DNA of 64,000 bases from an uncultured Candidatus Binatia bacterium (GTDB lineage Bacteria; Desulfobacterota; Binatia; UBA9968; JAJDTQ01). Position numbers and translations under genes: made by a program. The stretch lies in assembly GCA_965213675.1 (NCBI GenBank), contig OZ243916.1:1-64000 (forward strand), given 5' to 3'. The notes beneath the pieces are model-generated. The model saw nothing but the letters and a program-made list of their open reading frames with translations. It searched no databases and was not told where the DNA came from. This document shows, in pieces, positions 60,167 through 64,000 of the stretch; positions within the stretch are counted from its first letter, which is position 1, and every line of letters starts with the position of its first letter.

Positions 60167-61063
60167 ATGGCTTTCAGGATCGGCACGGCGGATGCGGGCG
60201 GCACGTTCGACACCCAAGGCGCGGCGGTGGCACAGGTGTTCAACGAATCCCGCCCGCCCGAGGCACACTGCGAGCTCACGCGCAGCTTCGCGAGCATCGA
60301 CAACGCCAACCGGCTCCATCGGGGCGAGATCGAGTTCGGCTTCATGGCCTCCAACTGGACGCCGCGGGCGGCGCGGGGGACGGCGCCCTTCGACCACCCC
60401 ATCGGACTGCGCATGGTGTCGCCGGCCAACGCCGGCCCGATCTTCTTCGTCACCCTCGCGGACTCGCCCGTGGGGAACATCGCCGATCTCGCCGGCAAGC
60501 GGGTGGCGGTGGGGGCCAGGGACAGCGGCATGACCCAGCACGTCCACACCCTCTGCGATGCGCTGGGCGTTCCCTTCTCGGACTTCGACCCGGTCTACAT
60601 GACCTTCCCGGAGGGAGCGGACGCCCTGGTGGCGGGGGAGGTGGACGTCCAGTTCCAGTGCCCGATCCCCAATGCGGTGATGACCGACCTGAGCGAGCGG
60701 GCCCGGGTCAAGGTGGTCCCGTACCGCGAGGACCAGATCGAGGACGTGCTCTCCAAGGTCCCGTTCTACCGGCGGGTCGTGATGCGCCGGGGCGCCTTCC
60801 GCGGAGTGGACGAAGATATCCCCCAGCTTGCGGTGCTCAACGTCCTGGTGAGCCACGAGCGGGTGGACGAGGAGCTCGTCTACGAGTTCGCCTCGACGCT
60901 GGTGCGGAACGCCGAAGCGCTGGCCCGGATCAATCCCCTGTTCGACACATTGGCCGAGCTTTACGAACCGCTACGGACCCAGGGCGCCGCGGCGCTGGAG
61001 CTGGACGGGGTGCCGCTGCATCCCGGAGCGGTGAGGGCCTACCGGGACGCGGGTTATCTTTGA
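60167..61063 (+). CDS. TAXI-family solute-binding protein with no signal peptide
   Basis: IGTADAGGTF, SIDN, DLAGKRVAVG..DSG and PLHPGA..AYRDAG motifs; the sequence starts at the mature domain. Confidence 0.85.
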   Translation: MAFRIGTADAGGTFDTQGAAVAQVFNESRPPEAHCELTRSFASIDNANRLHRGEIEFGFMASNWTPRAARGTAPFDHPIGLRMVSPANAGPIFFVTLADSPVGNIADLAGKRVAVGARDSGMTQHVHTLCDALGVPFSDFDPVYMTFPEGADALVAGEVDVQFQCPIPNAVMTDLSERARVKVVPYREDQIEDVLSKVPFYRRVVMRRGAFRGVDEDIPQLAVLNVLVSHERVDEELVYEFASTLVRNAEALARINPLFDTLAELYEPLRTQGAAALELDGVPLHPGAVRAYRDAGYL

Positions 61064-61090
61064 CACCGGCCCCGGATCCGGAGAGGTGCC

Positions 61091-62392
61091 ATGAAGAATC
61101 CCATCGACGCGGCCGGCCGCCTCGCATCACGAGCCGAGGAAGACGGCGACTTCCGCGAACGTCTTCTCGCGCAACCCCGAGAGACCATCGAGAAGGAACT
61201 CGGCGTGACGCTGGCCGAGGACCATGAGATCCACGTGCACGAGGAAACCTACGGCGCCACGCACGTGGTGCTTCCGCCGCGCGGTAAATTCAGCGCGGCC
61301 GAACGGAAGGAGGCGAAAGCCGGCGCGACATCATTGGAGTTTCTTCGCAAGACGATGCACGATCCCGCGCCGCCCGCTCGTCCCCCGGCCGCTGGAGGGC
61401 CGAGCACCCGGGTGGACGCCGCGACCCCCGAGGCACTGGCAGGGGCGGGCAGGGAAAGCATCCGCCGCGGTCTCGCCTTCCTGGAATCCACCCTCGACGA
61501 ACAGGGGGCCTGGCATTGCATCCGGTTCAACACGGCCGACCCGAACATTCCGCGGCATTTCGAAAGACCTCCCTTCGTATCGGCCCTCTGCGTGCTCGCC
61601 CTGGAAAGCAGCGATGAAGCTCGCGCCAGGGCCATGTGCGCCGCCACCAGGGCGTACCTTGTCAGGACCATCGAGTATCCCGGGTTGTGGCGCTACTACC
61701 GCCACCTGCCCCAGGATCTGGATAGCACCTCGCTCTGCTCGCTTGTCCTCGGGACTCACCCATGGATTGCGCTGGGAAGAAACGTTCCGGCGATATTGGC
61801 GAACCGCGACGAGGAAGGCCGGTTCATGACCTGGGTGCTGGAGGAAGACGAACCCAACGTCGTGGCGACCTTTCGCATCGAGGCGGATCCGGTGGTCAAC
61901 GCCAACGTCATTGCGTATCTGGGCGACCACGCCGAGACCAAGGCTGCCCAACGATGGTTGGAATCGTTGATTGCCGAGGGCCGCCTCGAGGGCTCGTCCA
62001 AGTGGTATCCCGACACGGTGGCCATCTACTATGCCGCCACGCGCGCCATGGTCCGGGCGCGGCCCGCCCTCGATGGACTGCGCCCGATACTCGCCGACCG
62101 TATCCTGGGACTGCGCGACGACAACGGACAATTCGGCGACGTCCTCCGGACCGCGCAGGCCGTGTCGGCGCTCTACAACATTGGATGTCTTGGACGCATC
62201 GACGCCAAACGCCAGGTGGAGAGGTTCGTCGGTTGGCAACGTGAGAACGGGAGCTGGCCGGAGCTGCTCGCGTTCGGCGATCAGTCGTTGAAGTGGGGCG
62301 CGTTCGGACAGATAGGGCATGGCTCCGAAGCCGTGACCTCGGCGTTTTGTATCGAAGCGCTGGAGCGGCTGGTCGAAGTCCTGCGCGCCTGA
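61091..62392 (+). CDS. Fusion: NHLP (nitrile-hydratase-like leader peptide) domain plus class II terpene-cyclase/prenyltransferase-like domain
   Basis: N-terminus RAEEDGDFRERLLAQPRETIEKELGVTL...IHVHEET...HVVLPP...ERKEAKAG; C-terminus GLWRYY, PQDLDST, DPVVNANV, WYP and WQRENGSW. Confidence 0.75.
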   Translation: MKNPIDAAGRLASRAEEDGDFRERLLAQPRETIEKELGVTLAEDHEIHVHEETYGATHVVLPPRGKFSAAERKEAKAGATSLEFLRKTMHDPAPPARPPAAGGPSTRVDAATPEALAGAGRESIRRGLAFLESTLDEQGAWHCIRFNTADPNIPRHFERPPFVSALCVLALESSDEARARAMCAATRAYLVRTIEYPGLWRYYRHLPQDLDSTSLCSLVLGTHPWIALGRNVPAILANRDEEGRFMTWVLEEDEPNVVATFRIEADPVVNANVIAYLGDHAETKAAQRWLESLIAEGRLEGSSKWYPDTVAIYYAATRAMVRARPALDGLRPILADRILGLRDDNGQFGDVLRTAQAVSALYNIGCLGRIDAKRQVERFVGWQRENGSWPELLAFGDQSLKWGAFGQIGHGSEAVTSAFCIEALERLVEVLRA

Positions 62393-62485
62393 CAGGTTTG
62401 TTGGCACCCGTATCGAGTGATAAAATTACACCGGTGCCGGGGAGGCTGGTCCTTTATGCCGCAAGATTCAGCCCTGGGAGGGGGC

Positions 62486-64000
62486 GTGAGCTCGGACAAG
62501 GCTGACATCACGCAGCAGATCGAGCCGTCGGTCCGTAACGCGCTACCGCATTACCTGCCACTGGGCATTTTCCCGCTGCTTCTCGCCGCCGCGATGTACG
62601 GCGGCTGGTGGCTGTTGCCGCCATTTCTCTTCATGAGCGTCGTGGGGCCGCTGGATCGGGCGCTCGGTCCCGACGGCCGCAACATGGACCCGGAGAAAAC
62701 GCCGGAACGCCGGCTGCTCTGGCACAATCTGCCGGTCTGGATCTGGGCGTTTCTGTGGCCGCCGGCGCTCATTTTCGGCATGTGGCAAATCCTGGTCGCG
62801 AATCAGTTCGCGATCTGGGAAGCCGTGATCCTGGTGATTCTTCTGACCATGGAGGCGCAGGCTGTATTCGTGGTGGGTCACGAACTGGTCCACCGGCGCC
62901 TTGCCTGGGAACGGCGTCTCGGAGAATTCCTGCTGGCCTCCGCCTCGTATCCGCAATATTCCACGGAGCATGTCTACATCCACCACGCCAAGGTCGGCAC
63001 TCCGCTCGATGTGGGCTCGGCTCCGAAGGGGGAAAGTTTCTGGAGATATTTCCCCAAGGAAATCGTCAGCAACATCACCAACTCCTGGGAATTCGCCGGC
63101 GAGCGGCTGGCGCGGCGCGGTCTGCCGCGGTGGCACTACAGCAATCAGTTCTGGCGCTACGGCATCGCCGTCCTGTTCTGGTATGGACTGGTGTGGTGGA
63201 TGAGCGGGATCCTCGCCGTGCTGGTCTTTGTCTTTCTCGGCCTGAGCTGCGTCTTCTCGATGAAGATCAGCAACTACTTCCAGCACTACGGTCTGCGCCG
63301 GGTGCGTCAGCCCAACGGCCGTTGGGAAAAGGTGATGCCGCGCCATTCCTGGAACGCGGACTGGAAGTACAGCAACTGGATGTTTTTCAACATGCAGCGC
63401 CATGCGGATCATCATGCGGCGGCGGCACGCCACTACCCGTTGCTCCAGGTCCGCGGCGCCGATGAAGCGCCGGTATTGCCGGGCACCTACGCCGACATGA
63501 TGAACATCGTGCTGCGGCCCAGGCGCTGGTTCGAGAAGATGGACCCGCTGGTGGATCAATGGCGCGCGCATTTCTATCCGGAGATCGATGACTGGAGCGC
63601 CTACGACAGCCCGATTGCGGCGGCGCGGCCGGAAGCCTTCGAGGCCATCGTCGAAATCTTCGGCGCCGCCCCGCGGCTCGCCAGGTGGATCGAACGCAAT
63701 CCGGAGCTTCTGGACAGCCTGCGGGACCGGGAATTCACCGATCTCGACCTGCCGACGGGATTCGGGCCGGATCGGCAGACCGAGGCGATTGCGCGGCGCG
63801 GGCTTGCGCGACTCTATTGGACGGTGGAAATGGGCGTCCAGGACATGAAGGAACTGATCGCCGAAATACCCACGGCGGATGCCAGGGAAACCGCCGAGAT
63901 CGTACGAAACTGGTCCAACGACAAGGCGTTTCAGATCGCTATGCACGTGGTTCGCGGGAACCTGTCGCCGGCCGAGGCAAAGACCGCGCTGTCCAATCTC
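62486..64000 (+). CDS. AlkB-like membrane di-iron monooxygenase/desaturase with a C-terminal GlnE-like extension (3' end outside the window)
   Basis: Hand translation from GTG at 62486 (RBS GGGAGG): GHELVH, EHVYIHH, NYFQHYG, HSWN and MQRHADHH motifs. The frame is open to the window end. Confidence 0.85.
   Translation, partial: MSSDKADITQQIEPSVRNALPHYLPLGIFPLLLAAAMYGGWWLLPPFLFMSVVGPLDRALGPDGRNMDPEKTPERRLLWHNLPVWIWAFLWPPALIFGMWQILVANQFAIWEAVILVILLTMEAQAVFVVGHELVHRRLAWERRLGEFLLASASYPQYSTEHVYIHHAKVGTPLDVGSAPKGESFWRYFPKEIVSNITNSWEFAGERLARRGLPRWHYSNQFWRYGIAVLFWYGLVWWMSGILAVLVFVFLGLSCVFSMKISNYFQHYGLRRVRQPNGRWEKVMPRHSWNADWKYSNWMFFNMQRHADHHAAAARHYPLLQVRGADEAPVLPGTYADMMNIVLRPRRWFEKMDPLVDQWRAHFYPEIDDWSAYDSPIAAARPEAFEAIVEIFGAAPRLARWIERNPELLDSLRDREFTDLDLPTGFGPDRQTEAIARRGLARLYWTVEMGVQDMKELIAEIPTADARETAEIVRNWSNDKAFQIAMHVVRGNLSPAEAKTALSNL

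Follow-up and report, generated by a model that had tools for sequence, protein, structure and literature searches.

The analysed window is a 64,000-nucleotide stretch from an uncultured Candidatus Binatia bacterium (assembly GCA_965213675.1, contig OZ243916.1; G000:C1:1-64000); it opens a 3.97-Mb contig whose numbering we also use for positions beyond 64000. At its downstream edge begins a gene that joins an AlkB-type membrane di-iron oxygenase domain to a module resembling one half of the adenylyltransferase GlnE. This fusion gene sits among genes for a peptide that is made on the ribosome and modified after translation (RiPP), between a gene for an NHLP-leader-like protein and a YcaO cyclodehydratase gene (Table 1).

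The reading frame is the plus-strand frame 62417..64000, which is still open at the window end; read from the ATG at 62456, it encodes 515 residues up to that end with no stop codon. A preliminary description of this DNA had remarked that the track of open reading frames (ORFs) misses the gene, and this fits: the ORF is listed only when open ends are allowed, because it runs off the window end. The same description saw the frame continue past ...FYPEIDDWSAYD near 63608 for at least 130 residues; the text there is as quoted, and the extension amounts to 414 residues in all. In the sequence beyond 64000 the frame does not stop just past the window, and its homologues are conserved. The stop lies at 64850-64852, which gives a full span of 62456-64852 on the plus strand and 798 amino acids (aa) from the ATG. 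The start had been placed at 62486, which is indeed an in-frame GTG and gives the length of the protein's own database entry (788 aa); another in-frame GTG lies at 62417. For the 798-aa gene, we use the ATG at 62456 instead, and its M1 is retained in at least 90% of 79 relatives.

Table 1. Coordinates of the fusion gene and its parts, of the surrounding genes and of a second type of fusion gene; residue numbers count from the ATG at 62456
Feature	Position	Strand	Basis or remark
AlkB/GlnE-like fusion gene, in-window part	62456..64000	+	Open frame; full gene to 64852
AlkB-type membrane di-iron oxygenase domain, residues 1-384	62456..63607	+	PDB 8f6t, Pfam PF00487, hydropathy
His box 1, HELVH (residues 142-146; H142, H146)	62879..62893	+	Invariant 79/79
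His box 2, EHVYIHH (residues 171-177; H172, H176, H177)	62966..62986	+	Invariant 79/79
NYFQHYGL motif; Q276 at 63281-63283, H277 iron ligand	63272..63295	+	Q276, H277 invariant 79/79
His box 3, RHADHH (residues 315-320; H316, H319, H320)	63398..63415	+	Invariant 79/79
GlnE-like module start, residues 385-515 in window; module ends at residue 798 (64849)	63608..64000	+	PF03710, NF010706, fold match
Degenerate nucleotidyltransferase motif, G549-D569	64100-64162	+	Alignments to 3k7d, relatives, GlnE
TAXI-family TRAP solute-binding protein gene	60167-61063	+	Directly upstream; kept in 6 closest loci only
NHLP-leader-like domain fused to class II terpene-cyclase-like domain, 433 aa	61091..62392	+	TIGR03793, PDB profile matches; 71/80 loci
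E1-like/YcaO cyclodehydratase	64849-67209	+	PF02624 2.3e-94
376-aa ABBA-prenyltransferase-fold gene	67206-68336 (L003:5206-6336)	+	Structure model
SrpE-type precursor, 83 aa, NHLP leader	68474-68725	-	Ends ...ITEEQLEAISAGLCCCW; LCCCW core, ITEEQL motif
Three transporter genes: MMPL/sterol-sensing, ABC, C39-ABC	68908-76459	-	Domain matches
LolA-like gene	77168-78064	+	Domain match
Flavin-dependent tryptophan halogenase	79324-80598	+	PF04820 4.1e-43
RND/GlnE-like fusion gene (L087, L091)	G001:C1:1581032-1585606	-	Last in row of three RND genes

An AlkB-type domain and a GlnE-type module in one frame

The N-terminal part of the protein matches AlkB structures over most of its length (residues 51-368 with PDB 8f6t at E 1.8e-45, residues ~50-368 with 8sbb at E 8.2e-37), and Pfam FA_desaturase PF00487 matches at 3.2e-25, above its cut-off. 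Hydropathy places hydrophobic segments at residues 29-59, 96-145 and 236-275, with none outside residues 29-275. We aligned 79 family members, namely this protein and its counterparts from 78 of 80 related loci, leaving out L058 with an early stop and L075 with a read-through. All nine iron-binding histidines are invariant (79/79), in agreement with the earlier reading of an AlkB-like di-iron enzyme with every His box present.

That reading had also pointed to an altered HYG motif, and the motif does read SNYFQHYGL: the position of the glutamate in NYxEHYG is occupied by glutamine, Q276, throughout the 79 members. Eleven more distant fusions have Q at this position in eight cases and E in three. 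By contrast, ordinary AlkB proteins from general metagenomes have E in 80 of 80 motif copies across the 79 loci listed, a sample for which the pattern admitted either letter and the ranking was by likeness to an E-bearing query. On these counts, Q in every family member against E in every ordinary AlkB motif listed, the sequence change is real, fixed in the clade of the 79 members and unusual.

Alignment to 8f6t puts Q276 on the Fe2-ligating glutamate, with a numbering that is offset by three from that of the published structure (PMC10113152). In the available parts of the structural reports, Glu271 of the Fontimonas thermophila AlkB (FtAlkB)-rubredoxin structure, which precedes His272, coordinates Fe2, lies 3.2 Å from the substrate methyl and has been proposed to donate a proton to the second oxygen atom (PMC10113152). 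A second AlkB structure has this conserved glutamate (E281) close to iron, and desaturases are described there as carrying water at its position (PMC10110569). By alignment, then, the N-terminal part is a true AlkB homologue with an intact-looking di-iron domain whose single carboxylate ligand is replaced by an amide.

The C-terminal module is GlnE-like at the levels of profile, alignment and predicted fold. Pfam GlnE PF03710 matches residues 461-573 with 32.6 bits against a gathering score of 24. NCBIfam NF010706 aligns positions 576-730 of its 986 with residues 392-571 at 63.2 bits, so that the GlnE equivalog cut-off of 724 is missed by far. When residues 385-798 were searched against 1.84 billion representatives, 459 matched at E <=0.001, of which 135 reached <=1e-10 and 57 reached <=1e-30. 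These are of three kinds: AlkB fusions of ~800 aa (29-51% identity), RND-permease fusions of ~1525 aa and genuine GlnE proteins of ~930-1010 aa. Full-length GlnE proteins align through their C-terminal half over query positions 9-411 of the module, and only one GlnE half is present, corresponding to ~570-1000 of the full-length protein. A structure model of residues 360-798, built from a 46-row alignment, has a predicted local distance difference test score (pLDDT) of 89.9 and a predicted template modelling score of 0.91. Its best PDB match in Foldseek is the adenylylation domain of Escherichia coli GlnE (3k7d, E 2.4e-10, template modelling score (TM) 0.60), with 1v4a, the N-terminal domain of GlnE, and DrrA, a GlnE-like AMPylase, as further matches.

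Taken at the level of homology and modelled fold, the C-terminal ~415 aa are one complete GlnE adenylyltransferase half, consisting of a helical lead-in, a nucleotidyltransferase core and a terminal helical bundle. The resemblance to GlnE suggested by the preliminary description is therefore correct, and reaches beyond the helical lead-in to the whole half. The two domains meet at MDPLVDxWRxxFYPEIxDW, a junction sequence whose conservation reaches down to fusions of 26-50% identity.

The catalytic residues of this half, by contrast with those of GlnE, have decayed. The GKLGG...SDLDLIF of 3k7d aligns with GDLAS...VAIDMMF here, and the search for a G-x-G...DxD motif that had been proposed as a check thus failed: the first Asp of the DxD is Ala in this protein and is kept in a single member of the family (A53, G10, S5, E4, P3, V2, R1 and D1 among the 79). 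The second DxD position is more often acidic (D42, E16, N9, R4, H3, K2, G1, S1). In an alignment of 15 fusion modules (12 AlkB, 3 RND) with five GlnE proteins, read by eye, the third carboxylate motif VDMRLRP is present in 5/5 GlnE proteins and 0/15 fusion modules. S-D-L-D-L is likewise found in all five GlnE proteins, and only one fusion module, P0146, keeps Asp at the first DxD position. Conservation across the 79 members is highest in the helical lead-in (residues 401-500, 0.85-0.88) and lowest in the nucleotidyltransferase core and beyond (0.63-0.74). Because the DxD and VDMRLRP carboxylates are lost, the module is probably a pseudo-nucleotidyltransferase, derived from GlnE but inactive as a transferase. 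The earlier idea of a hydroxylase or desaturase joined to a nucleotidyltransferase-like module thus stands in its architecture and GlnE origin, with a module that is most likely not an active nucleotidyltransferase.

The same degenerate module is found at the C-terminus of AcrB-type RND permeases of ~1525 aa (P0178, P0184 and P0157), with 29-31% identity over ~400 aa for the modules of P0178 and P0184. These RND fusions occur in sponge-type genomes, and one of them shares its genome with an AlkB fusion (L036). Within the 20 kb examined around the RND/GlnE-like fusion, NHLP, YcaO and other srp genes are absent and nothing points clearly to a function; the genes nearby include one for a squalene/phytoene synthase and one for an MpaB/Lcp-type oxygenase.

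The genome that carries our fusion gene (97.7% complete, 8% contamination) has no second AlkB and no second copy of either fusion domain, with no other PF03710 match and no canonical GlnE. It also has no match to rubredoxin PF00301, which is absent as well from 4 of 5 other srp-bearing genomes; as a control, the same search found PF00301 in 7 of 14 known genomes. Five of the six basic residues that dock rubredoxin in FtAlkB (named in PMC10113152) are nevertheless kept in the fusion protein, as read by eye from the 8f6t alignment. Because rubredoxin is absent yet these docking residues are kept, an acidic electron carrier other than rubredoxin is likely. A motif scan in all six frames showed ORF fragments of the small contigs C4, C13 and C19 recurring, identically or nearly so, on C1 of the same assembly (for example, C19 at ~77-80 kb and C1 at ~1.88 Mb), which suggests that assembly G000 holds redundant contigs and may explain the contamination figure of 8%.

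The srp locus and its distribution

The TGA of the fusion gene overlaps the ATG of the YcaO gene (ATGA, 4 nucleotides), and the stop of the YcaO gene overlaps the GTG of the 376-aa gene (GTGA). Judged from these overlaps and from the gene order, translation of the fusion gene is coupled to that of the YcaO gene, and the fusion gene is a core member of the cluster. We assign the locus to the srp (sponge-derived RiPP proteusin) cluster because an LCCCW core, the ITEEQL motif, a YcaO protein and a halogenase define srp; by this gene content it is a copy of the published cluster. The cluster was reportedly described by Nguyen and co-workers (2021, in J Am Chem Soc) as one of sponge microbiomes, common to many taxa, with an NHLP-leader LCCCW precursor, a YcaO protein, a halogenase and a C39-ABC exporter. 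With C for the YcaO protein, E for the precursor and I for the halogenase, the fusion gene would by gene order be 'srpB'. The architecture is thus unusual but not newly seen DNA, since the gene belongs to a cluster that has already been published.

As far as the consulted portions of the srp literature go, SrpC forms three thiazolines and SrpI brominates tryptophan (PMC10858898; PMC12615548; bioRxiv 10.1101/2023.06.09.544420; PMC9426513), with the substrate of SrpI described as the thiazoline form (PMC10858898). In the same portions, srp is reported to rank with those biosynthetic clusters that sponge microbiomes share most widely and transcribe most highly (PMC9426513; bioRxiv 10.1101/2023.06.09.544420).

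Relatives of the fusion gene were collected with one genome per GTDB species. They are encoded by 179 stretches; locus counts are from the best 80, with flanks of up to 10 kb, and these 80 are 53-90% identical to the fusion protein. The titles of the corresponding metagenome-assembled genomes name Binatia, Vicinamibacteria, Bryobacterales, Terriglobia, Alpha- and Gammaproteobacteria, Nitrospinota and Poriferihabitaceae, and state no sponge origin. An uninterrupted ORF of the same architecture and 785-816 aa is present in 72 of the 80 loci, all from other genomes, and the fusion is therefore not due to chance; six more loci have 658-680 aa. These shorter fusions (L063, L064, L068, L071, L080 and L081) are gammaproteobacterial and are without the last helical bundle, and five of the six loci (L071 is the exception) hold a second, divergent precursor ending ...AGMCCC. 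Two loci are irregular and may represent sequencing errors or real variants: in L075 (3264 onward), the fusion gene and the YcaO gene read as one 1571-aa ORF, and in L058 (85 onward), the frame, from match residue 14 at the contig edge, stops after nine codons. That the fusion would be an assembly or frameshift artefact of two genes, for which these two loci might speak, is refuted by the single ORF of 785-816 aa in 72 of 80 independent assemblies, and of 658-680 aa in six more, and by the conserved junction, which contigs from RNA libraries also bridge; we give it next to no weight.

Conservation extends to the neighbours. Presence among the 80 loci is 77 for the YcaO gene, 71 each for the NHLP-cyclase gene and the 376-aa gene, 67 each for the precursor and the ABC gene, 59 for C39-ABC, 41 for the halogenase, 36 for MMPL and 24 for the LolA-like gene. 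All five core genes stand together in 63 loci. The 71 loci with an NHLP-cyclase gene also answer a question raised at the outset, whether homologues co-occur with that gene. Because the upstream TAXI gene is common to only six loci, the transferred island begins at 61064-61091.

Beyond this set, 774 proteins in a collection of 5.8 billion match the fusion protein, and among the 120 listed, 99 carry both Pfam domains according to precomputed annotation; the few annotated names among the matches listed are 'fatty acid desaturase' or 'hypothetical protein'. In general metagenomes, the 79 loci listed for an alignment query of divergent fusions match only to residue ~374 and are ordinary AlkB; because the ranking is by likeness to an E-bearing query, fusions may still occur there. 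Two runs labelled sponge metagenome hold relatives of the fusion gene. Three RNA-labelled runs, each from a different study (two labelled sponge metagenome, one coral metagenome), hold contigs that lie on the gene at 80-99% likeness, and several of these contigs span the domain junction near L003:1608. They derive from relatives and, since such libraries may also contain DNA, are a weak hint of transcription.

Two neighbouring proteins bear on the chemistry of the pathway. Neither Pfam nor NCBIfam matches the 376-aa protein. Its structure model (pLDDT 88.9) matches the ABBA aromatic prenyltransferases EpzP, CloQ, AmbP1/3, NphB and DMATS, with 74 chains at E <=0.001 and TM 0.37-0.54; a language-model look-up gave the same lead. 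The 433-aa protein upstream of the fusion gene matches TIGR03793 at 3.8e-11, below the cut-off. A 27-sequence profile of it matches nitrile hydratase alpha (2.6e-9) and the NHLP leader 8tb1 (6.1e-7) over residues 6-69; over residues 205-426 it matches a bacterial drimenol synthase in its class II cyclase part (9mhs_B, E 1.2e-6). D209-L-D211-S is invariant in this family, and we take it to resemble the DxDTT motif of drimenol-type synthases. The NHLP-like N-terminus is 28-45% identical to the SrpE leader, making this a folded enzyme that bears a RiPP leader.

A plus-strand ORF at 68411-68782 (123 aa) was considered as a precursor and rejected, the conserved signal there being the SrpE gene on the minus strand. 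Between the LolA-like gene and the halogenase, an open frame of ~1.2 kb (L086:10065-11290 (+), contig about 78065-79290) has a moderately coding-like pattern of GC content and no family match.

Proposed function and alternatives

From its domains and its setting we infer that the fusion protein oxidises, as a membrane enzyme, a lipid-like part of the srp peptide and that its GlnE relic serves docking or regulation, a reading to which we assign a probability of roughly 0.55. The AlkB domain would be an oxidative tailoring enzyme, either a hydroxylase or, given the Glu-to-Gln change, a desaturase-like enzyme. Its substrate would be a lipophilic part of the SrpE-derived peptide, met within the membrane. 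This part would most likely be an isoprenoid chain that the ABBA prenyltransferase-fold protein attaches and that the NHLP-tagged class II terpene-cyclase-like protein may cyclise. Electrons would come from a donor other than rubredoxin. The GlnE relic would transfer no nucleotides and would serve for docking or regulation at the cytoplasmic face, taking the C-terminal position that rubredoxin has in natural AlkB-rubredoxin fusions. The prenyltransferase fold, the terpene-cyclase match, and the MMPL/sterol-sensing and LolA-like genes together point to an srp product that bears an isoprenoid part.

Several observations weigh against this proposal. The prenyl and terpene assignments rest on fold-level matches (TM 0.37-0.54) and one profile match at E 1.2e-6, and the portions of the srp literature searched give no substrate or product for the fusion protein, describing only the thiazolines of SrpC and the bromination by SrpI. 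With Gln in place of an iron-ligating Glu, oxygenase activity could be reduced or lost instead of being retuned. In the module, the L-G-D-L-A-S-R-E..P stretch of the old active site is kept in 73-79 of the 79 members and the second DxD position is acidic in 58, so some ligand binding or residual chemistry is possible. Finally, the presence of the module on RND pumps without an NHLP gene nearby argues against a role specific to leader binding, and a general regulatory or scaffolding role is therefore favoured over it.

The most competitive alternative, which we nevertheless consider rather unlikely, is that the AlkB-like domain acts on the peptide core, oxidising the three thiazolines to thiazoles in a desaturase-type two-electron reaction or hydroxylating Leu or Trp. 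None of the cluster ORFs scanned matched a family of flavin mononucleotide azoline oxidases, whereas the related mpr cluster has the azoline oxidase MprD, according to the available part of its description (PMC12455567), and a Glu-to-Gln site would be nearer to those of desaturases, with their water at that position (PMC10110569). Against this, the AlkB tunnel is described, in the part of the report available, as having a membrane-facing opening and binding aliphatic chains (PMC10113152); the cluster has prenyltransferase-fold, terpene-cyclase-like and lipid-transport genes; and a thiazoline form is what the halogenase SrpI is said to take (PMC10858898).

We think it unlikely, too, that the GlnE relic works as a sensor or regulator that binds, like GlnE itself, a nucleotide, glutamine or a PII-type protein, one that gates its membrane partner and has nothing RiPP-specific about it. 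Its occurrence on RND permeases, once in a genome that also has the AlkB fusion and without NHLP genes nearby, would fit, as would the conserved glycine-rich stretch of the old nucleotide site. However, this genome has no further PF03710 match, and the AlkB fusion stands in strict synteny and translational coupling with RiPP genes. A sensor role concerns the module only and is compatible with the proposed oxidase function of the AlkB part.

Improbable in our view is a module that still works as a nucleotidyltransferase, on the precursor, a pathway protein or a small molecule, by way of non-canonical residues. The GlnE fold, the kept GDLAS-RE motif, the acidic second DxD position in 58 of 79 members and the D-x-E of the distant fusion P0146 would allow it. 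The first Asp in 1 of 79 members, a second position occupied by N, R, H, K, G or S in 21 members, the absence of the third-carboxylate motif from all 15 fusion modules and the weaker conservation of the nucleotidyltransferase core (0.63-0.74 versus 0.85-0.88) speak against it.

More improbable still is a lipid or alkane hydroxylase from outside the peptide pathway, a passenger on the same mobile island. The protein is a true AlkB homologue by alignment and the island has spread between phyla, but the gene sits between two RiPP genes with a 4-nucleotide start/stop overlap and is collinear with its neighbours in 63-77 of 80 loci. Moreover, rubredoxin is missing in 5 of 6 genomes, there is no second AlkB here and the ligand Glu is replaced in every family member.

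Returning to the membrane oxidase that we favour, a more elaborate version may be sketched, although as a whole we would bet against it. The srp system would be a membrane-associated assembly line for peptide-terpenoid hybrids, in which the decayed GlnE half, as a docking domain of a new kind, brings the structured NHLP leader of the precursor and the NHLP-tagged cyclase to the cytoplasmic face of the Glu-to-Gln AlkB, and this in turn oxidises or desaturates a membrane-buried isoprenoid tail of the brominated thiazoline peptide. If this elaborate version is true, RiPP biosynthesis would have its first AlkB-type enzyme in the fusion protein, and a pseudo-nucleotidyltransferase would have been put to a new use.

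Relation to known systems

Much of this locus is already known: the srp cluster has been published, and the fusion protein is in public databases under generic names. At the level of the cluster we see no difference from srp, with the precursor, YcaO, halogenase and C39-ABC genes all present. In the literature searched, which did not extend to the primary srp paper, we found no description of an AlkB/GlnE fusion or of a dead GlnE half. For the srp product, the fusion gene with its prenyltransferase-fold and terpene-cyclase-like neighbours would predict further modifications of lipid type and by oxidation.

AlkB of Pseudomonas putida GPo1 is an alkane 1-monooxygenase. The fusion protein shares with AlkB proteins (FtAlkB, 8f6t, 8sbb) the four histidine motifs with nine His, a six-helix-like hydrophobic pattern and most of the basic carrier-docking surface. 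It differs from them in the Gln that replaces the Fe2-ligating Glu, in having no genomic rubredoxin, in the 415-aa GlnE-like module that follows the catalytic domain and in its place in a RiPP cluster rather than an alkane-degradation operon. For enzymology, the fusion would offer a natural AlkB with an amide for the only carboxylate of the di-iron site, apparently working without rubredoxin. The natural AlkB-rubredoxin fusion FtAlkBG (8f6t) likewise has a cytoplasmic domain after the last AlkB helix (MDPLV...), but the domain fused here has a GlnE fold and no Cys4 site, and is not an electron carrier.

Compared with GlnE (3k7d, 1v4a), the module is homologous over the whole C-terminal half. 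Unlike GlnE, with its two tandem halves for deadenylylation and adenylylation, it consists of one half that has lost DxD and VDMRLRP and is attached to a membrane enzyme. A parallel is offered by the RND/GlnE-like fusions, which carry the same degenerate half on the C-terminus of a polytopic membrane protein, although there the partner is an AcrB-type transporter encoded outside the srp cluster. A GlnE half thus appears to have found a second, non-catalytic use in membrane proteins of two unrelated kinds.

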